Below, in pieces: positions 5,118 to 60,475 of a stretch of 64,000 nucleotides of DNA. A program made the position numbers and the translations under genes. The notes under the pieces are model-generated. The model was not told the origin of the DNA. It saw only the letters and a list, made by a program, of their open reading frames with translations, and did no database searches. Origin of the DNA: a virus; IMG/VR virus record IMGVR_UViG_3300023094_000009, positions 32,001 to 96,000 of that record. The stretch is one strand, 5' to 3'. Numbering within the stretch: the first letter of the stretch is position 1; each line of letters starts with the position of its first letter.

Positions 5118-6812
5118 ATGAAATTAGATTGGATAAAGGATGACCAACGTACTTTTTTAGAAAGGGGGTATTTAGATGCAGGAGAATCTCCTGAGCAAAG
5201 ACTCCAAACTATTTGTGATACTGTCCAAAAGTATTGTGATCAGATGGGTAAAACAGAGTACACTAATAACATTGGTGAAAGATTTGTAAACTATTTTGAA
5301 AAAGGATGGGTGTCCTTGTCGACCCCTGTACTGAAGAATTTTGGTAAAGTAGATAATTTACCCATATCTTGTAATTTTAGCATTCTTGATGATAGTCTAG
5401 ATGACATTTATAAAGGATTACATGAGGTAGGGATGTTGGCTAAACACGGAGCAGGTACGGCAGTTAATTTTTCTGATATTCGTCCTGAAGGTAGCGATAT
5501 TTCAACAGGAGGTAAATCTAATACAGTTTTGGATTGGATTGAGTTATATGCTGACATGATGTCCAAAACTGCTCAAAACTCAGCTAGGAGAGGCTTTCTA
5601 ACTGCGTATTTAAGTGTAGATCACCCAGAGATAATGAATTTTCTAGATATCGGCACAAGAAGAATCCCTACGGAAAAGCAAAGATTTTTTCAAACAATCA
5701 CTACAGCAGTAACTTTACCAGAAGGTTGGAGAGAGGATGTTAAGACCAATGCTAAAAAAAGGGAAATTTTTACAAAGATTCTGAATACAAGGAAGGAAGC
5801 AGGATTTCCTTATATCTTGGACGAAACAAACTGTAATAAAGGTATTTGCCAGGCTTACTTAGATAAAGGGCTGAAAATTCGATCTAGTAATATTTGTATT
5901 GAGGCTATGGAATATGCTGATTACGAAAAGACTTTTGCTTGTTGCCTATCCTCTGTAAATTTGTATTACTACGATGATTGGAAAGGTTCTGAGACTTTTA
6001 TTAAGGATATGTCAATTCTTTTGGATTGTGTAATAGAAGAATACATTGAAAAGGGTTCGCATCTTCCGGGACTAGAAAAAGCTATAAAATTTTCTAAAGA
6101 ACATAGAGCCACTGGCTTAGGTGTGACAGCTTTTGTTTCTTATCTGCAAAAAAATAGTATTCCTTTTGGATCTCTTGAAAGTTTTGCTCTAAACGATGAA
6201 ATCTTTTCTCTTTTAAGAAGAGAGTCTGATAAAGCTTCGAAATGGATGGCAGAAGTTTGGGGGGAACCTGAAATCCTTAAAGGTTATGGCGAAAGGAATA
6301 CTAGTCGAATGGCACAAGCTCCTAAAAAAAGCACTACATTTATTGATGGGGGTTCATTCTTATCTTTAAGTGAAGGTATAGAACCTCATAAAAGTAATTA
6401 CAACGAGAAAAAATTGGCAAAAATTCAAGTTGAATTTAAAAATCGAGAGTTGCAGAAAATTCTCCAAGATTTAGGAAAAGATAGTCGTGATGTTTGGGAA
6501 TCTATTATGGAAAACAATGGATCTGTGCAACACTTGGATTTTTTATCTGAGCATCATAAAGATGTATTTAAAACTTTTAGCGAAATATCACAGGTAGATG
6601 TAATAGATTTGGCTGCTCAAAGAGGTAAATATATAGACATGGGACAATCTGTAAACATTATGATACACCCTGACACTCCTGCTAAAGATGTAATTAAATT
6701 GCATTTAGATAGCTTTGAAAAAGGTTTGAAATCCTTATACTATCAGTATAGTATAAATTCAGCTCAGGAGTTTAATAAAAATTTAACTACTTGTTCAACT
6801 TGTGAAGGATAG
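5118..6812 (+). CDS. nrdA: ribonucleotide reductase alpha subunit (no ATP cone)
   Basis: STPVL, PISCN, SNICIE (NxCxE), KSLYY, C-terminal CSTCEG. Confidence 0.95.
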   Translation: MKLDWIKDDQRTFLERGYLDAGESPEQRLQTICDTVQKYCDQMGKTEYTNNIGERFVNYFEKGWVSLSTPVLKNFGKVDNLPISCNFSILDDSLDDIYKGLHEVGMLAKHGAGTAVNFSDIRPEGSDISTGGKSNTVLDWIELYADMMSKTAQNSARRGFLTAYLSVDHPEIMNFLDIGTRRIPTEKQRFFQTITTAVTLPEGWREDVKTNAKKREIFTKILNTRKEAGFPYILDETNCNKGICQAYLDKGLKIRSSNICIEAMEYADYEKTFACCLSSVNLYYYDDWKGSETFIKDMSILLDCVIEEYIEKGSHLPGLEKAIKFSKEHRATGLGVTAFVSYLQKNSIPFGSLESFALNDEIFSLLRRESDKASKWMAEVWGEPEILKGYGERNTSRMAQAPKKSTTFIDGGSFLSLSEGIEPHKSNYNEKKLAKIQVEFKNRELQKILQDLGKDSRDVWESIMENNGSVQHLDFLSEHHKDVFKTFSEISQVDVIDLAAQRGKYIDMGQSVNIMIHPDTPAKDVIKLHLDSFEKGLKSLYYQYSINSAQEFNKNLTTCSTCEG

Positions 6813-7695
6813 TGGGAGAATTTGTGGTATATACAAGATAATCTCTCCTAGTAATAGAGTTTACATAGGTCAGAGTGTGGATGTAAAATCTAGATGGCGT
6901 ACTTATCTTTCCCTTAGTACAGGAAATAAAGGGCAAATACTTCTTTACAAATCATTGACTAAGTATTCTCCAGAAAAGCACACATTTGAAATTATAGAAG
7001 AGTGTTCAGTAGAAGATTTGAATTGTCGTGAAAGATACTGGCAGGATTTTTATGATGTCTTGAATGGAGGATTGAATTTGGTTCTACAGGAGTGTGGGGA
7101 GCAGAGGCGAATTTTTTCACAAGAATCATCAGAAAGAAAAAGTATAGCATCTTCAGGAGAAAGAAATGGTATGTACGGAAGATGCGGAGAATTGAATCCT
7201 AATTGGGGTAAAATTGTTTCAGAGGAGATTAGGAAACAACAATCAGAACGTATGAAAGGTAAATACACAGGTACTAAAAATCCTTTTTATGGAAAAGAGC
7301 ACACAAGTGAAACAAAAGAGCTTTTATCTGAGAATGCTAAGAAAAAAGTAGGAGTACTTAATCCTTTCTATGGTAAGTCCCATACAGAGGATTACAAAAT
7401 TAAATCCTCTAAAAGAACTTCTGAATTTTTCAAAAATAATCCCCACGCAAAACAACATCTCAAAGAATTGTATTCTATAGGCGTTTACCACACCCCGCAA
7501 GGTGAGTTTATATCTCAAAGAGATGCTGCTAGAGGAAATAATGTTACAAGAAATCTTATAAAAAGTAGGTGTGTAAAAAATTCAGACAAACCTGTAGGTT
7601 TCAATTATCAAACGCCTGTCGAGTTTAGAGGAGAAAAAACTTGGAAACAACATGGTTGGTATTTTACAGGAAAAGAAACTTCCTGTGCTGACTAA
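6802..7695 (+). CDS. GIY-YIG homing endonuclease with NUMOD3 repeats
   Basis: CGIYKI...VYIGQS...R; repeated NPFYGKxH motifs; lies directly after nrdA. Confidence 0.9.
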   Translation: MKDSGRICGIYKIISPSNRVYIGQSVDVKSRWRTYLSLSTGNKGQILLYKSLTKYSPEKHTFEIIEECSVEDLNCRERYWQDFYDVLNGGLNLVLQECGEQRRIFSQESSERKSIASSGERNGMYGRCGELNPNWGKIVSEEIRKQQSERMKGKYTGTKNPFYGKEHTSETKELLSENAKKKVGVLNPFYGKSHTEDYKIKSSKRTSEFFKNNPHAKQHLKELYSIGVYHTPQGEFISQRDAARGNNVTRNLIKSRCVKNSDKPVGFNYQTPVEFRGEKTWKQHGWYFTGKETSCAD

Positions 7696-7720
7696 AAGTG
7701 TTTACTACTACTTTACCTAC

Positions 7721-7756
7721 AAGCCTTCTCTATTCATTTAGGGAGGGCTTTTATTT
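7721..7756 (+). terminator. intrinsic terminator
   Basis: AAGCCTTCTCTA/TAGGGAGGGCTT stem followed by a T-rich tail. Confidence 0.75.
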
Positions 7757-7793
7757 GCTTTGTTTTCAGTGTTTTACGCCGAAATCTTAGTAA

Positions 7794-7839
7794 TTAACAT
7801 CTCGTTAACATTTCCAACAAGTATTTGTACATACCTTTG
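7794..7839 (+). promoter_or_regulatory. promoter: TTAAC-N6-TTAAC box plus Bacteroidota -7 element
   Basis: TTAACatctcgTTAACA, 21 nt, TACCTTTG. Confidence 0.7.
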
Positions 7840-7854
7840 TAAAAAAGAAAGATC

Positions 7855-8034
7855 ATGGAACTCTTAGAAGAAATTCAAGATAGGATAAGTAGGCATTATG
7901 TTAATTGCCCTGATTGCGAAGATGTGTATTCTGATGATCAATATACTTGCACAACTTGTTGGAATCAAGGCGGACAAGGTGAGATTAATGTACTAGACTT
8001 TATCAAAAATAACCCTGAAATATTAGAACTGTGA
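7855..8034 (+). CDS. small zinc-finger protein
   Basis: 59 aa, below the track cutoff; CPDC...CTTC; first gene after the promoter. Confidence 0.6.
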   Translation: MELLEEIQDRISRHYVNCPDCEDVYSDDQYTCTTCWNQGGQGEINVLDFIKNNPEILEL

Positions 8035-8207
8035 AACACAAAACAAATACTCAGGTTTTAGAAAGAGCTAGAGAAGTAGCAGAAGCTCTTTATAATATTC
8101 AGTAAGAAGCAAACACGCTTAAAATAGAACTGAATAAAAGAAAATTTACGCAAGATCAAGAAGAAAAATACGACTTGTTAAGTTTACTAGAAGAATTAGA
8201 TTACTAA
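8031..8207 (+). pseudogene. interrupted paralog of 8957..9139
   Basis: aligns along its length with the 60 aa ORF; in-frame TAA at 8103-8105 where the paralog has Gln. Confidence 0.7.
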
Positions 8208-8956
8208 AAAACAAAACGCTATGGAATATTCTACAAAAAGAGACGAAGAACAAACTGAGGTAAAAAGACTAACAATTTACATTGGTGAGGACAGATACCA
8301 TTTAGAAGAATCTGTTGATGGAAAGTTGAACATAACCAAGATTTCAGATGGAGGTACAGACAGGATGAATGTTAATCCAAGGTATTCTAATCAAATTGAA
8401 TTATCATGAAAAATGATCAATTAGTGACATCTAAAATCGCTTACTTAGCTAAAGAGAAAGGATTTGACCTTAGAACCAAGTCTTACTATATAGAGGAAAA
8501 GTTAATTGATTATGCAACAACCATGGATGGAGTAATTGTAGAGTCTTGGGATCATAATCATTCCTTTTTAGATAGAGCTTCTGCTCCTACGATACAAGAA
8601 TTACAAGATTGGCTGAGGGAAGAATTTGAGCAAAGGCTAAGATCAGAAGAAGGTCTAACCAAACTAATAAAAAGACTGAAATAAAGCACTATGGAAAATT
8701 ATTCAATCACACTAGCAGATAGTGGAATCTATATGCTGATATTTAATACAACGGAGAGATGGACAGATTACCACAGATATTCAAACACTGTGTATGACAT
8801 TGGAAGTACTACTTATTTAGAGATAGAAGAGTTTCTTCCTGGTAATGTTAAATATGTAGTTACGAATGTTCAAGATAAAGATCAGATTGTGTTTTACTTT
8901 ATTCCACGTGATTTGGTTTTGAAAGGGCGGAAAGTTTTATTTACATCAAACAAACT

Positions 8957-9139
8957 ATGAAAGAGAAAACTAATATTGAAATTCTGAAAAGATCCCGAGA
9001 AGTGGCGGAACAGTTATACAATTTAAGACAAGAGTCTTATCAGCTATCACGAGAATTAGAGAGTAGGAAATTTACTCAAAAGCAGGAAGAAGATTATGAT
9101 TTGTTAAGTCTTATGGATGAGTTAAATTTTGAATTATGA
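8957..9139 (+). CDS. hypothetical protein
   Basis: 60 aa ORF; intact paralog of 8031..8207. Confidence 0.65.
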   Translation: MKEKTNIEILKRSREVAEQLYNLRQESYQLSRELESRKFTQKQEEDYDLLSLMDELNFEL

Positions 9140-9594
9140 CAGAAATAGTAGAAATTAAAGGAAATATTATAACTGTTAAATGGACACCAAACAAACTCCT
9201 AAAATTATTTGGCTTCAAAGAAAAGACAACCACCTACTTACATAGAGGGGAAACTTATATTTTTGGTGGAGGTTATGTATGGTATGAAAAAGAAACTGGT
9301 AAGATGTACGGTAAGTGTGAATATCTTGATACTGCATTAAGAAAACAAAATTGGAATTAGATGAATAAAAACAGACTAAGAAAAGAAAATGTACACAGGC
9401 TTTACAAGAAAGAAATTGAAAGTTTCTGGAATGCATTGTCTGTTGGAAGGAAAGAAGGAGATAAGCGTGTTATGAGAGTATCTGATAATGGTGTTCTTTG
9501 TATAAAGTTTTTTGTTAATGAGGAGTGGGATTGAATAGGGAAAATTTATAATTTTCTTTTCCAGTTCTTTTTATTGCCGAAATTTAGATAAAGT

Positions 9595-10476
9595 ATGAAA
9601 AAAGAAGAAGTATGTGTGTTTATTGACAGCCTGTCTGAACGTGAAGAAGCTATCAAAATTTTGCAAAAAGCGGGATTAAAAATGGGCGATATGACCCTGA
9701 CCTATGATTATAGTTATCTTAGAACAGATGAGGGGGATGATGTATGGTATATTGCTTGTGAAACTTTAGGTCGTATAAAAATAACTTTGAGTCAATTTGA
9801 AGAAATATTATCAAAGGATCAAGATGAGTACGAAACAGAATTGATGATAAATACTTGTGAGCGTGCAGCAAAAAACAAAAGTGAATACAGAGTCAAAACC
9901 AAAGAAGAGTTTGAAGCTACTTGCGAAAGAACTATTGACGGAAGTGATTCCTATGTATGCGGAGAATCCAAGTTTCATCTTGAAGATATGTCACATTTAT
10001 GTGGCTTAAATTTGACCTTAGAGCAATCTGATCCCCTCTTACAAGCAGGTGAACCTATTAGTCTTAAAGGTATGGGTAACTGGTATTTTACAAAAGAAAT
10101 GATTACACCGATCCTAAATGTTGATTTAGTTGATACCGAAAAATTTCAAAACATAACACCAAGTACAAGTTGTAAGATTAGTAGGTTGGATGAAAGTTGG
10201 GGCAAAAAAGAAACTGAAAACAAGGTAGACTACTCAGAAATAAACCTAGACATTCTAGACCTAATGGCTAAGAGAATGAATGCCAATAAGCATAAATATC
10301 CAGAAGGAAATAGTAAGAGAGAATTGAACGTAAAAGATCTGGAATGGGCTTTATTCAGACATCTAAAGAAAATGATTAAACCTATAGAAGGAGATGTAGA
10401 GAGTTATGAAGATCATTTGAGTGCTATTTTATGTAATGCGTCTATGATATTGGATCAATTGCAGAGGAAGGGTTGA
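9595..10476 (+). CDS. multidomain protein with C-terminal dATP/dGTP diphosphohydrolase-like (DUF5664) domain
   Basis: KVDYS...KYPEGN...ALFRHL...DHLSAILCNA pattern. Confidence 0.65.
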   Translation: MKKEEVCVFIDSLSEREEAIKILQKAGLKMGDMTLTYDYSYLRTDEGDDVWYIACETLGRIKITLSQFEEILSKDQDEYETELMINTCERAAKNKSEYRVKTKEEFEATCERTIDGSDSYVCGESKFHLEDMSHLCGLNLTLEQSDPLLQAGEPISLKGMGNWYFTKEMITPILNVDLVDTEKFQNITPSTSCKISRLDESWGKKETENKVDYSEINLDILDLMAKRMNANKHKYPEGNSKRELNVKDLEWALFRHLKKMIKPIEGDVESYEDHLSAILCNASMILDQLQRKG

Positions 10477-16949: not shown

Positions 16950-17014
16950 TTCGAGTAGACTTATTTTGTTTTCAGTTTTGTTTGCCGAGATTTGGTTAAT
17001 TAAGTGTTAAATGG

Positions 17015-24081: not shown

Positions 24082-25281
24082 GTGAATAAAAAAGTAACCA
24101 CAGAAGATTTTATAGCTAAGGCTAAACTTGTACATAAAGATAAATATGATTACTCAAAAGCTATTTACACTAGAGGTCGGGACTTTATAATAATAATTTG
24201 CCCTATTCATCATACCTTTCAACAACGTGCAAATTGCCACACAAGTGGTAAGGGGTGTAAAGAATGTGCAGTAATTAATAGAGCAAAGAAGAAAACTTAT
24301 TCGAAGGAGAAGTTTGTAGAAAAAGCTAATAAAGTATTTGGTAATAAATACAGTTATGAGAATACAGTTTATAAGGATTCTAAATCTCTAGTTACAATAA
24401 ATTGCCCAATTCATGGAGAATTCAACAAGAACGCCGCTCATCACTTAAACGGTCAAGGTTGTCTCACTTGCTCCAACTTAAATCATAAGGGAACTTTTAA
24501 AGCTAAGGATACAGAATACTTCAAATCTAAAGCCTATCAAATACATGGCGATAAGTATGATTACTCTCTATCTGAATACAAAGCTGCTATCCAACCTATA
24601 AAGATAATATGTAAGATTCATGGGGAATTTATGCAAACTCCTCATACCCATTTAAACGGTTCTGGTTGTAATGAATGTGGAATCTTAGCAACCACTCATA
24701 AAAGAAGGTCAACTTTGGATTATTTTATACTAAAAGCTAATGAAGTACATACTAATAAGTATGTCTATGACAATGTTATTTACAAGAATACAAACACCAA
24801 AATTGAAATCACATGTCCTTCACATGGAAATTTTAAACAAACAGGAGGATCACATTTATCTGGAAATGGTTGTCCAATTTGTGCCCGAGAGGCTACAACC
24901 AGATACAGCCAAGAAAATCCACTAGGTTGGTCATACTCAAAATGGCTTGAAACTTCAAAAACTTCTTCTGATTTTGATTCGTTCAAATTGTATATAATAA
25001 GGTGTTGGGATGAAAATGAAGAATTCTATAAGATAGGTAGAACTTTCAAAAAAATTAAAAAGAGGTTTGATGATAAGAGAACTATGCCTTACAATTATGA
25101 AATCTCTTATGAATTCTGTGCAGATGGTTCTTATATTTGTGATTTAGAAGTAAAACTAAAGAAAACTTACAAAAAGGTTAAGTATGTACCTTCTATACAA
25201 TTCTCAGGATCTACTGAATGTTTCACCACTGATCTACCGATTGCAGAAATTATTGCAAAGTACTTTGAAGTTCAAAGTTGA
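24082..25281 (+). CDS. putative homing endonuclease: four DUF723-like Zn repeats plus a C-terminal GIY-YIG-like domain
   Basis: 4x C.IHG.F.Q...HL.G.GC..C; LYIIRC...FYKIGRT. Confidence 0.8.
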   Translation: MNKKVTTEDFIAKAKLVHKDKYDYSKAIYTRGRDFIIIICPIHHTFQQRANCHTSGKGCKECAVINRAKKKTYSKEKFVEKANKVFGNKYSYENTVYKDSKSLVTINCPIHGEFNKNAAHHLNGQGCLTCSNLNHKGTFKAKDTEYFKSKAYQIHGDKYDYSLSEYKAAIQPIKIICKIHGEFMQTPHTHLNGSGCNECGILATTHKRRSTLDYFILKANEVHTNKYVYDNVIYKNTNTKIEITCPSHGNFKQTGGSHLSGNGCPICAREATTRYSQENPLGWSYSKWLETSKTSSDFDSFKLYIIRCWDENEEFYKIGRTFKKIKKRFDDKRTMPYNYEISYEFCADGSYICDLEVKLKKTYKKVKYVPSIQFSGSTECFTTDLPIAEIIAKYFEVQS

Positions 25282-25319
25282 AAGGTTTGTTTCAGTTCTT
25301 TTTCCGGCGAATCCTACCT

Positions 25320-25416: not shown

Positions 25417-26112
25417 ATGAAAACAAAACTGATTAAGACTGAAGGTTATCTTTGGCTTGTAGATTTAGAGGCTGAGATTAAAGAGAATGATTATTTTTAT
25501 AGTCCTGCCCTCCAAGAAGTATTATTTGCTTCGAGAGATATGTTGTCATGGAATTTTGATAAATCTCAAGAACAAAAAGGTTGGTTAAAATGTTTAGCGT
25601 ATTTTCCCCTGCAAAGTGATTCTAAGGTTTTGGATTTACCCCTTTTGCCGAATCCTTGGAGAGAACGTATTGATCCTGATGATATTGTAGAAGAATTGGA
25701 TAATAAACTTGTCAGGTACTCCACTGAGGAATCGGACTTATGGAATGCTTGGCAGATAGGAGTAAAAGATGGGTATAAAACTGCACAATTGAAAGGTAGT
25801 TATAGTTTAGAAGATATGGAGAGAGCAATTGACATGTCCAGAAAAGCTAATAGTGACCAAGGTGTTATAGATTTAGATGCTATTTACCCCTACTCTGATG
25901 ATTTCACTAATATCAATACTGTTTATACGAGGTATGAAATTATTAAGTCCCTATCTTCTCCTATTCTTCCTAAAGACTTCATTCTATCCAACTCAGGTAA
26001 TTCTATTGTCGTAGGACATAATGGCTTGAATAATGAATTTGGAACTCTTATATACTCCGTCACTTTTAATGAGAATGGTAAGAGTGTTATTGAAGGGGAG
26101 TATGTCTATTAA
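25417..26112 (+). CDS. hypothetical protein
   Basis: 231 aa ORF downstream of the promoter. Confidence 0.7.
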   Translation: MKTKLIKTEGYLWLVDLEAEIKENDYFYSPALQEVLFASRDMLSWNFDKSQEQKGWLKCLAYFPLQSDSKVLDLPLLPNPWRERIDPDDIVEELDNKLVRYSTEESDLWNAWQIGVKDGYKTAQLKGSYSLEDMERAIDMSRKANSDQGVIDLDAIYPYSDDFTNINTVYTRYEIIKSLSSPILPKDFILSNSGNSIVVGHNGLNNEFGTLIYSVTFNENGKSVIEGEYVY

Positions 26113-27823
26113 GTTGTTTTTCAGTTTTATTCGCGCGAAAATTTAAATTAAATAAAAATTATGATTACAGTAGTAGCAAATGCAGAACAATTAAGAAAAG
26201 CATTAAAACAAATTGAAAGAGCCGAATCAAACGGATTTAACTATTGCTTAGCAGTATTCGACTTAGTGGAATGTGGCAGTAGTGTATCTGATTGCAAAAT
26301 TGAGTTTGATGGTATACTTGAAAAAGCACATCCAACAGATGGAAACCTTAATTGGGGTAGAGGACAAAGAGTAACAGAACGAAACAGATTTGTAGATGGT
26401 AAATTGATACCAATAGAAGAGTAAATTATGGCATATATAGAAGTAGATTTATCTCTAATTGACGATTACGACTTAGAGGGAGAAATTGTAAAAAGATTAA
26501 GTAGGGGAGATAATGGCAATATTCAAGAAGTCACCCTAACTGATGATCTGAATTTTATGTCAGAAATTGTAGCTACGGATATTGACCAGCTTAGTGAACA
26601 TCATAAAAGAAATCTACTTTATGCCTTAACTGGCGGTGAAATGGAAACCAATATGTATGACAATCTAAAAAGAGAGCATATAGAAAGTGTTTTTGATAAG
26701 TATTCTTTGGATGAATTGTATAGACTAATACCTTGAAATTTTATTTTCTTTTTCAGTTCTTTTTCCGGAATTGTGCTATATTTACGAAAAAATTTAAGTT
26801 ATGAAAAATAAAATCTACATTGTAGTCGCTTACAGGTGGGGAGAAAGAAGTAATCACTCTTACACTGTTGGAGCATTTGAAACAAAAGAGGAAGCCATTG
26901 TTTGTGCAGATGGTCATAGAGACTATCGAGGTGGTAAGTATAGCTGTGAAGTCGAGGAAATTATTATTGGCGGATACGATGAAGACATGGATAATTATGC
27001 AGAAAGTGTTTATCACGCTAATGGAATGTGCGAGATATGAACGACTCCCTCATTTCCCTTAGCTACGCTTTAGCATCCACTAAGATGATAACCTACCCCG
27101 ACAAAGTGGCAATACTCGATATTCCATTTCCAGAGTTATTAGAAGAACTTAAAAATTACAATCCTATGAACAGAAAGAACGAAATAAAGAGAGCTCTTTA
27201 CAGAGAAAAGCCTATGGCAAAATATTACCCAATCTGGAAATCGCTGGGAAAGGACTATGATTATGTAGATTATAGGAGTGAATTAGCCGATGGAACTCAA
27301 GTTCATTTCAGAGTTCCTAAAGAGGAACACAGTGATTTATTTACGGGTACTATGCCAGCCCTTCTTCTTATCAAGTGGATGGTTGATTTTTTCAAAATAA
27401 CGGTGAGATGATATGGAATGGATATTAATAATTTGCGTCATTGTCTCTGGTATTGGGGTAATGATGAACAGTGATTTTAATTATGATGAAGAGGATAGGA
27501 ATTAGTAGTTGAAATAACGAGGTATGAAAAAAGAACAGATGCTCAAAGAAGCTTATGGCGAATTTTGGGAAAAATTGGAGGAAGGTGTCAATGGATATGG
27601 ATGGTGTATTTTAAAGGATTCCCATCCCATTTTCAATACTGTACCTATGCAGAGAATGAATAAGTACTACGCTAGACCTGCCTCCCTGAAAGGTATTGAA
27701 CTTATAAAGTTTATTTACTAATCCTACGGAAGCTCATTTGCTTATTCGGTGGATGGTTGATTAATTTTTTTATTTTCAGTTTTTATTCCGGCGAAATTTA
27801 AAAATTACATTATCTTTGTACCT

Positions 27824-28675: not shown

Positions 28676-29404
28676 ATGAACAAGAAGAAAACAACAGAAG
28701 AGTTCATCAAAGATGCTTGTAAAGTACATGGCGACAAATACCTGTATGATAAAGTCATGTACGAAGGTTGGGATAAAAAAGTAACCATAGTGTGTAAGTC
28801 CCATTCAGAATTTGTGCAATCTCCAAATAGCCACCTGAATGGCGGTGGTTGTCCTGTTTGTGCTCAAATATCAAGATCCGAAGCGTATAAAAATACTATT
28901 GGAAGAAAAAAGGATAACTTTACGTATGACTTCACATCAGATACCTCTAAGGTTATACCCCTCACAGAGAAATTTTTTGCTATTGTTGACAATGAAGATT
29001 TTGATAGAGTATCAGAGCACAATTGGCATCTAAGTATTAACTACGCTTCTAATCCCAAATTAGGACTTCTTCATAGATACATACTAAATGTAAATGATCG
29101 TAAAGTCTATGTAGATCACAAGAATCACAATGGTTTTGACAACAGAAAATCAAACTTAAGGCTTTGCAGTCAGAAAGAAAACGCGTCAAATCAGTTAATA
29201 CAGAACAGAGAAAAATCAAGTATCTACAAGGGAGTGACTTGGGATAAAAGTAGGAATAAATGGGCAGGAAGGATAAAACATCATGGAAAAGGAATATTTC
29301 TAGGTCGTTTTTTAAATGAGATAGACGCAGCTTTAGCTTATGATGTGAAAGCTAAAGAGTTGTTTGGTGAATTTGCATGGTTAAATATAAAAGATTCAGA
29401 ATGA
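28676..29404 (+). CDS. HNH homing endonuclease with DUF723-like and AP2 domains
   Basis: Zn repeat; VDHKNHNGFDNRKSNLR; SSIYKGV.W...W...I...LGRF...AALAYD. Confidence 0.9.
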   Translation: MNKKKTTEEFIKDACKVHGDKYLYDKVMYEGWDKKVTIVCKSHSEFVQSPNSHLNGGGCPVCAQISRSEAYKNTIGRKKDNFTYDFTSDTSKVIPLTEKFFAIVDNEDFDRVSEHNWHLSINYASNPKLGLLHRYILNVNDRKVYVDHKNHNGFDNRKSNLRLCSQKENASNQLIQNREKSSIYKGVTWDKSRNKWAGRIKHHGKGIFLGRFLNEIDAALAYDVKAKELFGEFAWLNIKDSE

Positions 29405-29922: not shown

Positions 29923-31473
29923 CAGAAAAGTTAGAAAGCATGGAACACAAAGTAATGATTCACGGTTCACATCACTACACAATTAAAGTTAAAGGAAATA
30001 AGAAAACCTTATACTTTTCTTGCGAGGATTTTTGGGCAGAGGCGTCACAAGGCAAGAAGATAGCTTCAATAAAGAATACGGGGAATGGTATCAAGATAAA
30101 AAGATTCAATAAATTCTTGGGATATGGTGATGCTCTGGAATTGAACATCCTTCTTACTTGTGAATTAGGAACTAAATTTGAAATACTATGACAATCCAAG
30201 AATTTTGTGAAGAAAAAAGAGGAACTTACGATAAGTTCTACACCATGTATGAAGTGTGCAAGAGTTTAAGTTTTGTAGATTTGAATGTTGACCCCATCCA
30301 AGCTATCAGAGAGGTTTGTAAACTTTTTATGGAGCATCCTTTATATGGAGAAGGTGTTATTGATGTTTCAGTTTCTTATGGCGATCCCTTTGAAGGAGAT
30401 TGCAGGTTGGATGAGGAGTCATTGAATTTCTTTGTTTATGATTTAGAAGAGTTTGTTGATCCTCTTTCTGGCGAAATTGTGAAACCAAGCATGAATAAAC
30501 TGGATGTTAGATTCATCATCAAAAAGTTTGCGGAAGACTCAGAAGAAAATATTTTAGCACAGGAATTAGACAAATGTAGAAGTCTTTCTTACTTTTACAA
30601 TAACTATGTCAAACTTGATGTTCAAGCAGACGTTTCAGATGAAGATATTCAGAATCTAATCAAAAATACACTTAAATTAAGAGGAAGATTATGACTAAAT
30701 TAGAGTTCTACAGGAAAACATATAGAGCCTATTGGTTATCTCAATTTTTACCTTCAAAGTGGTTAAATCCTCACAGAGGATTTTGTCATTTTTGGCGAAG
30801 CAGGAGTATGGGAGAATCTTTTAAAGTGACAGACCTATACTTATTAGCTGTAGCTCATCCTGAATTTTCAAATATGGGGTATTGGTTTGAGCGTGGGAAA
30901 ATAAAACCAAGATTACAAGTTTTAAAAACAGCAATTAAAAATTTAGAAAAATGACAGAAGAAGAAAAATTAAATGAAAGACTAGAATGGTTAGAGGGTAA
31001 CTATGATATGTCTGAAGACGAGAGAAGATCTGTATTACGTGCAATGGTTGAATTTGCTAATTTTCATGTAGGAGAAGCTTTGCAGGAGGCTAGTGAAAAA
31101 GCCACCATGAAACTTGAATATCCTGATGAGGCATATCAGGAGTCAAATGAAACTGGATTGAAGTTTGCCTGTGCTGATGATATTAGTAGAGGAGGAGAGT
31201 ATGGATCTGTAGAAATAGAAGAAGATTCAATTTTAAACGCTTATCCACTATCTAAGATCAAATAATTATGAAAATTAAAGAAACTGAATACTACAACCTC
31301 ATAGAGGGAGAAGACGAAAATGGTGAATGGGCTATCCAGTTGAATAAAGCCAAAAGGGTTTGTCAATTAACATTGGAATCTGATGGTAATGATACTTATG
31401 TGAACCTTGACAAGAAAGAACTTCTCTTAGTTAGAGATTTGATTGATATACAACTTTTAAATATGTAATTTTT

Positions 31474-33072
31474 ATGAAAAATTTATTATTAATTTTCTTT
31501 GTTTTCAGTTTGTTTTGCGCGAATTGTCAGCCATATGTTCACACTACGGGATCTGTAACAACATGTTCCGGTTTATTTTATGATAACGGTAACACTGGTA
31601 ATTACCTAAATAACAGTAATGTAACTCAAACCTTTGTGCCACCTTCCTCTTGCTCTGCACTAAGTGTGACGTTTTCAGCATTTAATGTAGAGGCGGGTTA
31701 TGATTTTCTATATGTATATAATGGAAATTCCACAAGTGCTCCTTTGATAGGGACTTATACTGGAACTACCCTCCCTTCAACCATAGTTTCTTCCTCAACT
31801 GATGGTTCTTTAACTTTTAGGTTCACATCAGATAATACCCAACGTAGAGCTGGGTGGGTGGCTTCTTTCTCCTGTATCACAAAACTAACCTTAAATGCAG
31901 GAGTTGATAAAACAGTAAGTTGTCACGGTAATACTACTATGTCAGCAACTGCAACAACTTTAGGTTTCACTGGTTCCACAACTTACCAACAAAATCTAAT
32001 GCCTGTCGGAAGTTATGTAACAGATGCTTCAAATACAGAAGTTGGAGTTACTTTAAGTGGAGCACCTGTAGGAGCAACTATCACAAGTGTTACTTTTACT
32101 CCTCAATCATATGTTACTCCTTGTACTTTTCCTTGCGGATTTACTTTGTGTTACCAGTATAACTCTTGGGTGAGAATGGAATATTGGAACGGATCTTCGT
32201 GGATAGTCATAACTACATGCAATTCCCCTGTAACTATTAGTAATTTTAATGGTAATGCTGTAAACGGTCAAAACATTAAAATAAGGACTATTAATATTGA
32301 TGCTTTTTCAGACTATGTCTACACTGATTTATCTAATGTTACTGCAACCTATCAATACAACCCCACTATTACTTATTCTTGGTCACCCAATACTGTAAAC
32401 GGATACACCACTCTTTCTAGTGTTACAATACTTAACCCAACTGTCACTCCTGCTAATACAACACTCTACACTTTAACTGCAACATCAAATGGATGTTCTG
32501 CGTCTGATGCTGTCCTCATCACTATGCCTTGTGCATTACCTGTTGAACTTACTAATTTTTCAGCTCATTGTCAAAGTGGGATTTCTTTTATTAAGTGGGA
32601 AACAGCTTCTGAGAGTAATTCTGATTATTTTTTAGTGGAAAATTCAAGGGATGGGGAAAGTTGGACAGTGGTTAATTCTGTGGGGGGGGCTGGTAATTCA
32701 AATAGTCCTAATTCTTATGAAACTGTTGATTATTCTTTTCGCGGAGAAACAAGTTACTACAGACTTAGGCAAGTTGACTTTGATGGAAATTTTGAAGTGT
32801 TTGAGCCTGTAAGTGTTTCTTGTGAGGAAGAGGAAGACAGAATCTCAATTCATCCAAATCCTAACACTGGAAAATTCTTTTTGGAAATATACTCAGAGAA
32901 AGATAAGGGAATGCAAGATGTAAACTTAATAGACAATACTGGACGACTAGTTAAGACTAGGAAGATTGACATTAATAATGGAACGACAGTGGTTAATTTT
33001 ACCATTGATTTACCAAGCGGAGTTTACTTACTTTCTGTTTCAGGAATGAATCAAAAATTTATAATTGAATGA
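31474..33072 (+). CDS. secreted CUB-domain protein with T9SS type A C-terminal sorting domain
   Basis: signal peptide; CUB (CSGLFYD.G...YDFLYVYNG...LTFRFTSD...GWVA); LPVELTNF module; HPNP...GRLV...LPSGVYLL...KFIIE. Confidence 0.9.
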   Translation: MKNLLLIFFVFSLFCANCQPYVHTTGSVTTCSGLFYDNGNTGNYLNNSNVTQTFVPPSSCSALSVTFSAFNVEAGYDFLYVYNGNSTSAPLIGTYTGTTLPSTIVSSSTDGSLTFRFTSDNTQRRAGWVASFSCITKLTLNAGVDKTVSCHGNTTMSATATTLGFTGSTTYQQNLMPVGSYVTDASNTEVGVTLSGAPVGATITSVTFTPQSYVTPCTFPCGFTLCYQYNSWVRMEYWNGSSWIVITTCNSPVTISNFNGNAVNGQNIKIRTINIDAFSDYVYTDLSNVTATYQYNPTITYSWSPNTVNGYTTLSSVTILNPTVTPANTTLYTLTATSNGCSASDAVLITMPCALPVELTNFSAHCQSGISFIKWETASESNSDYFLVENSRDGESWTVVNSVGGAGNSNSPNSYETVDYSFRGETSYYRLRQVDFDGNFEVFEPVSVSCEEEEDRISIHPNPNTGKFFLEIYSEKDKGMQDVNLIDNTGRLVKTRKIDINNGTTVVNFTIDLPSGVYLLSVSGMNQKFIIE

Positions 33073-33372
33073 AATTAAAAAACTTATTCAGAAAAAAAGG
33101 TTCTGGAACCACTTCCTGTAATTCTAAAAGAAACTAAATACAATATTCTTCTAGAGATTTTTGAAAAGACAGAACTTGAATTAGAAATTGACAGATATTT
33201 TGGGCGTGAAGGCAAAAATACAATTCTTTACAACAATGTAAGAAAGACCTATGAAAAATATATGTGGGAGTATGCAAGCGAGAGCATAACAATTTTAACA
33301 AACCAACTTCCCACGCAAATTTGGAAAGTAATGAATCACACAATACAAATTAAAAACACAAATAATGAATAA
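33069..33372 (+). pseudogene. frameshifted ~100 aa gene
   Basis: ATGA-coupled start; removing one A from the A7 tract (33092-98) gives a continuous ORF ending at TAA 33370-72. Confidence 0.55.
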
Positions 33373-33976
33373 AGAAAATTACATCGCACAAAAAGAGCTA
33401 ATTCTAGAGAAACAAAGAGCCTTGACAAAAGAACTGTCTGATCTAAAGGAGAAGTACATTAAAGAGTGTGCTCCATGCAAAATTGATGAAAGAGTAAAAG
33501 TGGTACACAATTCTGGAAGAACTGAAAATATGGTTGTGAAAGGATTTGGAATTTTTAAAGATGAAGTTTACATAGAGAAATTCAACAAAATTAAATCAGA
33601 CGGAGATGCGGAATCAACTTTCCGTTACATTTCAACAGGACATGGGAAGATTGAAAAGCTATAATGACGGAGTAATTGCTGTGATGCACGTACAGATTGA
33701 TGTTAAAGGAAAGAATTATATTGAAGCCAATTACGATGTGGAAAATGATTCTTACTATGGAGTGTATCTGAGGGTAGGTAAGAGGTGGAATGCTGATAGT
33801 GAATATTGGATTTTTAACTCTTTTTTGCCGATTTTGAAAAGGTTTAAGAAGAGGCGTTTAACAGAAGATGATAAATATCAGATGAAAAGATTTGACATAG
33901 ATTTTATCACAGAAGACAATGTTAGAGATTTCCTTCAAGCGTTTAAGTTATTTTTGAAAATGACAAATTACGAATT

Positions 33977-34033
33977 TTAACTGATTATTAACAAGCCTTG
34001 CAGATTTTTGTGAGGCTTTTTTGTTTAACTTTG
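33977..34033 (+). promoter_or_regulatory. TTAAC box, terminator hairpin and -7 element
   Basis: TTAACtgattaTTAACA, AAGCCT..AGGCTT hairpin, TAACTTTG 4 nt before ATG 34038. Confidence 0.65.
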
Positions 34034-39907: not shown

Positions 39908-41374
39908 ATGAAATACGAATTATTTAATTTTCAAAAGAAAGCCCTTGCATTGTGTGAGGGCTTTTTGTTTGATTCACCTCTGAAAAGTGGATTGTGTATA
40001 ATACCTACCGCTGGGGGTAAATCCGTCATCAATGCTAAACTTTGCGCTTCGCTTAGAGGTGTTCCTACTTTGGTGGTTGTTCCTTCTGAGGAATTACTTA
40101 GACAGAATTATGATGCTATGGTTAAGGAAGGGTTGGAAGTTTCTATCTATTCTGCTTCCATGAACTCAAAGGTTATTTCTTCTCTTACTATTGCTACAAT
40201 AGGATCTTTGAAGGATAAAGGGAAAGAGTTTAAAGACTTTGGTGTTAAGTTTGTTTTTATAGATGAGGCTCATTTTAAGTTTTCTTCTTTCAGTTTTTTG
40301 AGGAGCTCCCCTCTTTCCGGCGATTCTGGTGAAGTGCGAGATGCAATATTCAAAGGATTCATGAAGGATTTGAAACCCAAGAAACTTTTAGGCTTTACAG
40401 CTACGCCTTTCATATTGTCAACTGTTGGTGGAATGGCTTCGCTTAAATCTCTCATAAATGTCAGAGGAGGATTCTTTAAGGATATCATACACCTTACACA
40501 AATTCAGGAAGTGATCAAGGAAGGACGTTGGGGTGAGATTAAATACGATCTCCACCCCGTCAAAGATTACCAACTGAAAGTAAATACTTCGGGAGCTGAA
40601 TACTCCAAAGAATCGATAGATCTGTTCTTGAAAGAGAATGAGGTGAATAACCGTGTCTGTCTTCTATTAAAGCAACACCAAGCGACAAAGACACTCACAT
40701 TTGTAGAATCTGTTGATGTTGCTAACAAGATTAAAGAATGGTACAATTCTAAGCTGTTTAAGGGACGATGCGAAGTTGTTTCAGGTGATACTCCCAAAAA
40801 AGAGAGAAAAGCCATTATTGAGGCTTACAAGGACATAAATAGCGATTTATTACACTTAATCAATTACGGTACTTTGACAACAGGTTTTGACTTTCCTCAG
40901 CTTAGTGTTGTAATTGGTGCAAGACCTACAATGTCTTTGGCTTTATATTATCAGATGCTTGGTAGGCTTACCAGAGTACATAAGGATAAAGAGTTTGGAT
41001 TATATATTGATTTGGTGGGTAATTGTTCTAAGTTTGGTTTTATTGAAGACTTGAATTTTGATAGTGTAGGAAAGTTTGTTTTCAGTTGTTTTTCCGGCGA
41101 AAAGTTGCTCACAGATATTCCTCTTACCTTTCCTTATCCTGTGACAAAATCAACAATCAGAAATCCTCCTAAAAGAAAGGCTGTTGCAAATAGGGATATG
41201 AAAATATGGTTTGGCAAGTTTGATGGACAATTAGTAACAAGACTTCCAAAGTGGTACAGAGAATATCTTTTACAGGGAGATTCTTCGGATTTTCCTCTAA
41301 ACGAAAAAAGAGAAGCCCTTATGGAACTCCTCTCTTCACTGAAATATAATGAGTATACTTCTATTCTTACTTAG
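39908..41374 (+). CDS. SF2 DEAH helicase (RadD/UvsW-like)
   Basis: PTAGGKS, DEAH, FTATP, LTTGFD, QMLGRLTR. Confidence 0.93.
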   Translation: MKYELFNFQKKALALCEGFLFDSPLKSGLCIIPTAGGKSVINAKLCASLRGVPTLVVVPSEELLRQNYDAMVKEGLEVSIYSASMNSKVISSLTIATIGSLKDKGKEFKDFGVKFVFIDEAHFKFSSFSFLRSSPLSGDSGEVRDAIFKGFMKDLKPKKLLGFTATPFILSTVGGMASLKSLINVRGGFFKDIIHLTQIQEVIKEGRWGEIKYDLHPVKDYQLKVNTSGAEYSKESIDLFLKENEVNNRVCLLLKQHQATKTLTFVESVDVANKIKEWYNSKLFKGRCEVVSGDTPKKERKAIIEAYKDINSDLLHLINYGTLTTGFDFPQLSVVIGARPTMSLALYYQMLGRLTRVHKDKEFGLYIDLVGNCSKFGFIEDLNFDSVGKFVFSCFSGEKLLTDIPLTFPYPVTKSTIRNPPKRKAVANRDMKIWFGKFDGQLVTRLPKWYREYLLQGDSSDFPLNEKREALMELLSSLKYNEYTSILT

Positions 41375-60235: not shown

Positions 60236-60475
60236 ATGAAAAAGCTACTTATTATCACTTCAGTTTCTTTATTAATCCTCTCTTCCTGCAACAAGGACTA
60301 CAATTGTGTCTGCTCGCTTTATAACGAACAAGGGCAAACCGTAGCAACTGAAGAATACAATTCAACTCAGTACAAGAAAAAGGATAAAGACGAGGCAGAG
60401 AAGAGTTGCAAGGATCGCGATGTTGCGCCTAATGGGGCGTTCGGTGAAATGGGTCGTAAATGTGAGCTGAGATGA
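60236..60475 (+). CDS. small Cys-rich lipoprotein
   Basis: MKKLLIITSVSLLILSS-C lipobox; 4 further Cys. Confidence 0.8.
   Translation: MKKLLIITSVSLLILSSCNKDYNCVCSLYNEQGQTVATEEYNSTQYKKKDKDEAEKSCKDRDVAPNGAFGEMGRKCELR

Follow-up and report, generated by a model that had tools for sequence, protein, structure and literature searches.

What does a gene for a protein bearing a type IX secretion system (T9SS) sorting signal do in the genome of a large phage? The question is raised by a 64,000-nt stretch of viral DNA (the window), bases 32001–96000 of the 141,284-bp IMG/VR record IMGVR_UViG_3300023094_000009, which is about 95% complete. The gene, referred to below as the cargo gene, is complete and occupies positions 31474..33072 of the + strand, stop codon counted in (window coordinates, used throughout unless the genome is named). 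Its product combines a CUB domain with a type A T9SS C-terminal sorting domain (CTD). The preferred answer, given a probability of roughly 60%, is that it represents a host-derived auxiliary gene (a 'moron') fixed in a large lytic-type phage of T9SS-bearing Bacteroidota, and that the product would be exported via Sec and the T9SS to act as a binding protein. The host is probably a member of the Flavobacteriales, near Crocinitomicaceae/Brumimicrobium.

Architecture and export signals of the cargo protein

The open reading frame (ORF) begins with ATG and encodes 532 aa with zero internal stops. A first-pass annotation, made from the sequence alone, had described an intact, Thr/Ser-rich protein with a signal peptide, CUB domain, beta-rich middle, 'LPVEL' module and type A CTD, and this description held up in the ORF list, the Pfam and NCBIfam scans and the composition (Ser plus Thr 25.0%, against 13.2% in the remaining phage proteome). 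The mature protein contains 12 cysteines and has an isoelectric point of 4.55.

Residues 1–18 (MKNLLLIFFVFSLFCANC; 31474..31527) resemble a Sec signal peptide, with a basic n-region, a hydrophobic core, A-x-C at positions −3/−1 and Gln at +1. The call is heuristic, made by eye and with a hydropathy script (hydropathy 3.15 over 10 residues). Cleavage is predicted before Gln19 (ANC/Q), leaving a mature protein that starts QPY; the closest relatives align here as ...SYS/QPY, and Gln at +1 is common to them and the cargo protein. A lipobox of the kind found in the T5 protein Llp was not recognised, as neither SLF-C15 nor AN-C18 fits the pattern [LVI][ASTVI][GAS]C.

The other export signal lies at the opposite end. 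Residues 459–531 of 532 (32848..33066; HPNPNTG..., IDNTGRLV, SGVYLL, QKFIIE) match the whole of the Por_Secre_tail model (PF18962, positions 1–75 of 75) with an E value of 8.7e-9 and 36.0 bits against a cut-off of 27, and the NCBIfam type A model TIGR04183 with 5e-9 and 36 bits against a cut-off of 23. Only type A models were found; the type B sorting domain (TIGR04131/CHU_C) gave no match in the NCBIfam and Pfam scans at E values up to 1. The Pfam CUB family (PF00431) matches residues 61–132 (E 8.7e-11, 42.6 bits against a cut-off of 21.4), placing both families named for checking in the first-pass annotation above their curated cut-offs.

An AlphaFold2 model based on a 39-sequence alignment has a beads-on-a-string appearance, with a mean confidence (pLDDT) of 79.9 and values above 90 for the CUB domain, the LPVEL module and the CTD sandwich, while the middle region is poorly defined. 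The CUB fold of the model (residues 20–137; 31531..31884) is unambiguous: VIA structure comparison aligned 111–116 residues to PCPE-1, TSG-6 and cubilin with Z scores of 18.0–18.5 and root-mean-square deviations of 1.3–1.7 Å, and phmmer related this domain to cubilin with an E value of 1e-16. Residues E73, D77 and D120 are invariant in the homolog alignment and align with the E/D/D of the CUB domains of cubilin and neuropilin-2 (...LEE..., ...DFLEI..., ...SD...), a set that may correspond to the acidic calcium-site triad (Glu, Asp, Asp) of ligand-binding CUBs.

Residues 138–300 (31885..32373) form a beta-rich middle region that is very rare. Full-length matches among 1.84 billion representatives were limited to two proteins (P0034 and P0121), and a word-index search returned the query itself only. 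No Pfam family matched, Foldseek gave weak beta-glucuronidase and Ig matches only and ESM Atlas scores were at most 0.79, so that the function of the region was not identified by these means. When residues 138–352 were refolded separately the pLDDT was 82.9, and VIA-wide comparison gave only generic Ig/PKD matches with Z scores of at most 9.5 over about 80 residues. The second part of this segment, residues 301–352 (32374..32529; motif YSWSP...NPTVTP...TTLYTLTATSNGC), is an Ig/PKD-like domain with pLDDT values of 90–95.

Ahead of the CTD lies the LPVEL module (residues 353–452; 32530..32829), a predicted seven-stranded beta-sandwich conserved in 91 homologs and at 49 viral loci. It matches no Pfam family, and LPVEL plus CTD found nothing significant among PDB sequences by phmmer. 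The module is real nonetheless, as the first-pass annotation had proposed: nine residues (L355, P356, L359, F362, W375, Y415, Y428, L431 and G438) are invariant across 30 proteins from viral contigs. Pfam, Foldseek and VIA searches of the passenger, the part of the protein carried between the two export signals, revealed no enzyme-like family or fold. Being made of beta domains only, without a catalytic domain, the passenger most likely has the job of binding something, and from its architecture the product is predicted to be a released or surface-attached, calcium-dependent binding protein.

A dispersed element and residence in the phage genome

The most unusual feature of the locus is that the signal peptide contains a copy of a dispersed phage element, an oddity that touches on how DNA signals are fitted into coding sequence. 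The element is about 30 nt long, has a consensus of about TTTGTTTTCAGTTyTTTTTsCCGGCGAAA, and is laid out as TTTTCAGT, a T-rich spacer, a CG cluster and then AAA. There are about 40 copies in the genome (about 41 at 20 bits or more), mostly intergenic in the + arm and in both orientations; the commonest 10-mer of the genome is TTTTCAGTTT, with 28 copies. Copies in the window include those at 7752-7789, 16958-16995, 25278-25315, 26107-26144, 27762-27799, 31491-31528 and 41068-41105, and forward intergenic copies mostly stand 37–53 nt ahead of the next ATG.

The copy at 31491..31528 (TTTGTTTTCAGTTTGTTTTGCGCGAA), on the + strand, covers codons 7–18 of the cargo gene and encodes the hydrophobic core IFFVFSLFCANC. 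It shows a 97% match to positions 7597–7624 of the genome. A weight matrix built from 23 intergenic copies, with the signal-peptide copy excluded from training, gave it 35.0 bits, the sixth highest score of 58 sites. Three null models reached this value rarely or never. When synonymous codons were resampled for the same peptide, 0.04% of 5000 trials came to 35 bits. Signal peptides taken from 74 homologs and back-translated 200 times each scored no higher than 24.7 bits, and the opening 90 nt of the 201 remaining phage ORFs no higher than 4.9 bits. In 50 further viral loci that carry related cargo genes there was no site of at least 22 bits, although many of their signal peptides are similar at the protein level (MKNLLLSIFVFF...). 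The dispersed motif reported earlier in these codons is therefore well beyond what the peptide sequence would produce by chance.

The signal peptide is not the only coding location of the element. Twelve of the 41 copies scoring at least 20 bits lie inside called ORFs (a few of these ORFs being doubtful), and the six embedded copies on the coding strand share one reading frame, giving ...F-V/L-F-S-x-F.... A tentative and rather improbable explanation is that the element, for which a promoter, a nick or priming site and a protein-binding site are candidates, is deliberately kept in coding DNA in one fixed frame, which here would supply the hydrophobic core of a signal peptide. The export signal of a captured gene may have been rebuilt from the phage element, for example by recombination at the element, or the tolerance of signal peptides to sequence change may have been used to fit a required element into an operon without intergenic space. 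If true, one stretch of DNA would carry both a signal at the genome level and the export signal of a protein. A function as the early promoter of a crAss-type virion RNA polymerase was also considered and is unsupported; a search for the DFDxD pattern found nothing in the large ORFs. In a study of phage phi14:2, early transcripts lacked a common upstream motif (10.1101/2020.03.07.982082).

The presence of a dispersed phage element inside the cargo gene means that the gene has resided in the phage, and other properties agree with this. Its GC content is 0.363, compared to 0.364 ± 0.029 for other phage genes, and its codon-usage likelihood ranks 18th of 71. It lies 63.5 kb into the 141-kb viral record, flanked on either side by phage genes, and, as described previously, is embedded among small + strand ORFs, being separated from the upstream ORF by a gap of 5 nt and joined to the downstream one by an ATGA stop/start overlap. 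An independent assembly (Logan), made from the only DNA run found to contain the sequence (probably the source run, a leaf-litter metagenome of 2018), has one 141,177-nt contig that crosses the region with 0 differences and without joints at the borders of the cargo gene. No RNA run is listed for the region. The cargo gene is an integral, intact phage gene, and an artefact, whether chimera or contamination, is essentially excluded. The proposal of domestication rather than contamination is upheld by the phage-specific element, the matching composition and the Logan contig.

Relatives and genomic setting

A search of 5.8 billion protein clusters returned 899 hits, and those with a source name or organism were Bacteroidota-type cargo proteins. 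The organisms named by genome hits are Brumimicrobium, Crocinitomicaceae and other Flavobacteriales. P0002 (located on a 630-kb contig) and P0004, the best full-length relatives, share 46–48% identity with the cargo protein and have a short tail of about 35 residues in place of a full CTD. The best match changes from domain to domain: P0002 and P0004 for the CUB (55–57% identity) and Ig-like (75%) domains, P0034 of a Flavobacterium sp. for the middle region (52%), and P0038 of Brumimicrobium glaciale for the LPVEL module (65%) and CTD (45%). These cellular proteins, together with P0033, use the same domain vocabulary in the same order (CUB-...-LPVEL-CTD) at 45–75% identity per domain, but none matches the cargo protein throughout and none carries the phage element. 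P0033 is encoded at the best full-length genomic locus (L087), which must be cellular since its neighbours include FtsH, SecA and a sigma-70 family protein. No recent or close donor was found among about 15 billion proteins. Because each domain has a different best match and all close relatives are cellular Bacteroidota proteins, the gene is read as mosaic and as captured long ago from a host of Flavobacteriales type, with long residence or domain shuffling probably following.

Two observations concern these relatives. Locus L087 (JACKGA010000006.1, 43 kb; ORF 7566-10067, 833 aa, with CUB, middle region, LPVEL and type A CTD) is binned as 'Candidatus Nomurabacteria', of the candidate phyla radiation, and a T9SS cargo in such a bin suggests mis-binning. 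The tail of about 35 residues that directly follows LPVEL (...NxLGQEI...G..I.vY.DGT..K...) recurs in cellular and viral relatives (P0002, P0004, L188, L195, L196, L198, L199, L204 and L205) and may be a shortened or distinct sorting signal.

Phages with T9SS cargo genes have been described before. Bellas et al. (2020, Nat Commun) found three type A CTD genes in 'Cryophage', proposed that the host T9SS is hijacked, and suggested competition or superinfection exclusion as roles (PMC7468147). This is likewise a Bacteroidota phage with genes ending in a type A sorting domain, but its genome is a 76-kb circle from cryoconite and the cargoes are endoglucanase, GH39 and PA14 proteins in hypervariable islands (PMC7468147), whereas the 141-kb leaf-litter phage carries a single, non-enzymatic CUB/Ig-type binding protein. 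In a gut phage cluster (cluster 2), de Jonge et al. (2019, Viruses) reported T9SS sorting-domain genes beside BACON-repeat genes (PMC6949934). These are also CTD genes of uncultured, Bacteroidota-linked phages with carbohydrate- or protein-binding beta passengers; they differ in lying upstream of the head module, some of them fused to BACON repeats (PMC6949934), while the present gene has no BACON, a CUB passenger and a position in the replication-side arm. Both domain types are, moreover, already annotated in phages, as judged by predicted structure and annotation: the best viral matches in a Foldseek search of BFVD were A0A6J5NMN5 of an uncultured Caudovirales phage ('CUB domain', E 4e-23) and A0A6J5M2J1 ('Secretion system C-terminal sorting domain', E 8e-9).

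A survey of viral databases for CTD proteins, as suggested with the first-pass annotation, was made by scanning IMG/VR with two peptide patterns from the LPVEL module, and gave 49 loci, where nearly all the ORFs have a signal peptide. Por_Secre_tail was reached at E ≤1e-3 by 13 of 30 non-redundant ORFs; the passengers include Ig_7, ALK_LTK_GRD and a galactose-binding-like domain, and CUB occurs in the present protein only. At three loci that were checked, the viral context was confirmed by neighbouring genes for tail sheath, tape measure, tail fibre, RNA ligase and a clamp-loader-like ATPase. One group of loci (L166-L186), mostly from lake metagenomes and on contigs of up to 436 kb, encodes proteins of 800–1700 aa with a near-identical signal peptide (MKNLLLSIFVFFTSFV..SQSCTH), an LPVEL-plus-CTD end and Ig_7 repeats between. 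Another phage contig (L006; IMGVR_UViG_3300017917_002765, 136.6 kb, 39% complete) has two adjacent genes for secreted proteins at 6238-8618, one of 448 aa with a signal peptide and collagen-like GPTG repeats, the other of 343 aa, in which a signal peptide is combined with an LPVSL module and a short tail; this unrelated phage gave no Por_Secre_tail match and no DNA polymerase match. The novelty implied by the first-pass annotation was overstated, given Cryophage, the gut phages, the UniProt viral entries and the frequency of such genes in IMG/VR. The principle has been known since 2019–2020 and the present gene is a further example of it, which adds a CUB-type, non-enzymatic cargo, a soil/leaf-litter phage and a clean argument for residence in the phage. 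The recurrence of an LPVEL-plus-CTD cassette across dozens of viral contigs adds weight to the idea of a general strategy among phages.

The viral record encodes a ribonucleotide reductase, DNA polymerase, helicase, several HNH endonucleases, a head maturation protease and giant virion proteins, and the cargo gene is its sole CTD gene and sole CUB gene. Close relatives of the phage were sought in several ways. Among GenBank phages, megablast with 15 kb found no match and tblastn with the cargo protein matched only four huge uncultured phages, in the LPVEL/CTD part, and no relatives were found by way of the neighbouring 304-aa primase-like protein.

From the ORF spacing, the small genes at 29940..33980 (+), which are tightly packed or overlap, are predicted to form one transcription unit that includes the cargo gene and is preceded by a TAnnTTT-like box before 29940. 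No terminator-like site was found directly 3′ of the cargo gene. At 33993..34018 (+) there is a terminator-like hairpin with a T run, then a promoter-like box (TAACTTTG) for the next unit, and a primase/helicase-like gene follows the cargo unit. The cargo gene thus sits in the replication-side arm, and the nearest virion gene is about 10 kb away on the opposite strand. An early timing of expression is suggested by gene position only.

The small ORF immediately downstream (33069..33372, +), the ATG of which overlaps the cargo stop codon, is broken in frame at an A7 run (approximately 33091-33097). The frame from ATG-33069 ends after 22 codons, and the +1 frame runs on through 97 protein-like codons without a stop. 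A small gene broken in frame, an error in the homopolymer or slippage could account for this, and the Logan contig has the identical sequence. Near the cargo operon in the replication arm are several genes for HNH endonucleases whose N-terminal modules are internally repeated (24082-25281, 28676-29404). Other candidates for export by this phage are lipoprotein-like ORFs of 71 and 79 aa with a lipobox-like ...SC (window 60236-60475 and genome 20379-20594), and a 601-aa protein of the structural arm with a signal peptide and no Pfam match (genome 110573-112378, beyond the window).

Possible role and alternative explanations

From the sequence and the known type A T9SS route, the following pathway can be proposed. 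The protein would be made in the infected cell from a multi-gene transcript of the replication-side arm and would cross the inner membrane via Sec, where removal of the 18-residue signal peptide would leave Gln at +1. The C-terminal type A sorting domain would then direct it through the host T9SS translocon and be removed, with the protein released or anchored at the cell surface. What would be delivered is a string of beta domains: a CUB with an apparently intact acidic calcium-site triad, the rare beta region, the Ig/PKD-like domain and the LPVEL sandwich. The most plausible benefit would be an altered surface of the infected cell, either because a receptor is covered or occupied, sparing later phages or progeny, or because adhesion is changed. 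Phage T5 has a small lipoprotein, Llp, that binds FhuA and blocks this receptor. As a functional analogy only, both would be exported phage proteins that act at the surface before lysis and prevent superinfection and loss of progeny; the cargo protein differs in having no lipobox and in its export route. Surface remodelling also fits the control of phage susceptibility by T9SS and gliding genes in flavobacteria, a link raised in the first-pass annotation and backed by published work (10.1101/2020.10.02.323337; PMC9804748).

Several points weigh against the preferred reading. The GC content at third codon positions of the cargo gene is somewhat low (0.24 compared to 0.31 ± 0.044). Export, timing, ligand and benefit are all predictions, and a T9SS in the host is deduced from the homologs all being Bacteroidota proteins. 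The nearest phages by DNA polymerase share at most 41% identity, there are no close relatives in collections, and a CTD gene (Por_Secre_tail) is absent from the three phages nearest by polymerase, one of them a 92%-complete genome of 132 kb. Finally, blastp and tblastn searches with the cargo protein across the phage proteome revealed no domain in common with the virion proteins, which leaves the idea that the phage masks its own receptor without support.

An alternative explanation is that the gene is a functionless passenger, a host gene merely carried along, neutral or decaying, with no gain to the phage from its export. The gene is a singleton, the sole member of its 90% cluster and found on a single contig, it has no counterpart in related phages, and the small ORF directly downstream is frame-broken. 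Yet the 1.6-kb ORF is fully intact with both export signals, agrees in composition with the phage, contains a top-scoring copy of the phage's own element and has no close donor among the proteins searched (46–48% full-length identity at best), and many unrelated phages keep similar cargo genes; this explanation is considered unlikely. Less probable again is a decoy or jammer of the T9SS, the sorting domain of which would compete for the translocon or for PorV/PorU, shut down gliding or receptor delivery, and so bring about superinfection exclusion. The CTD is complete, and loss of T9SS or gliding makes flavobacteria resistant to phages (10.1101/2020.10.02.323337; PMC9804748), but the 450 residues of well-folded binding domains ahead of the CTD would be superfluous in a pure decoy, and nothing points to stalling in the translocon.

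A place in the virion, as a decoration of capsid or tail or an accessory to receptor binding, with the signal peptide and CTD as relics, is highly improbable. Many virions are decorated with Ig-like and CUB-like domains, the weak structural matches include Hoc, phi29 and phage tail proteins, and LPVEL/CTD genes adjoin tail genes at two other viral loci. Against this stand the location of the gene in the replication-side arm, well away from the virion genes and on the other strand, the intact and canonical state of both export signals, and the 12 cysteines, typical of exported proteins, whereas virions assemble in the cytoplasm. The least credible alternative is a bacterial cargo gene stitched into the phage contig during assembly or by contamination. 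The restriction of the sequence to one run, probably the source run, would allow for it, but the tight junctions on both sides, GC content and codon use like those of the phage, the single 141-kb contig of an independent assembler and an element that is specific to this phage and absent from the 50 viral loci with similar genes all speak for a genuine phage gene. Taken as a whole, the interpretation given in the first-pass annotation, that the phage uses the host T9SS to display or release its own protein, is partly supported.

In Bacteroidota, surface proteins delivered by the T9SS have a central part in gliding, the degradation of polymers and phage adsorption. If the preferred reading of the cargo gene as an exported, host-derived binding protein is true, phage genes that feed the T9SS would allow a virus to remodel the surface of its infected cell.

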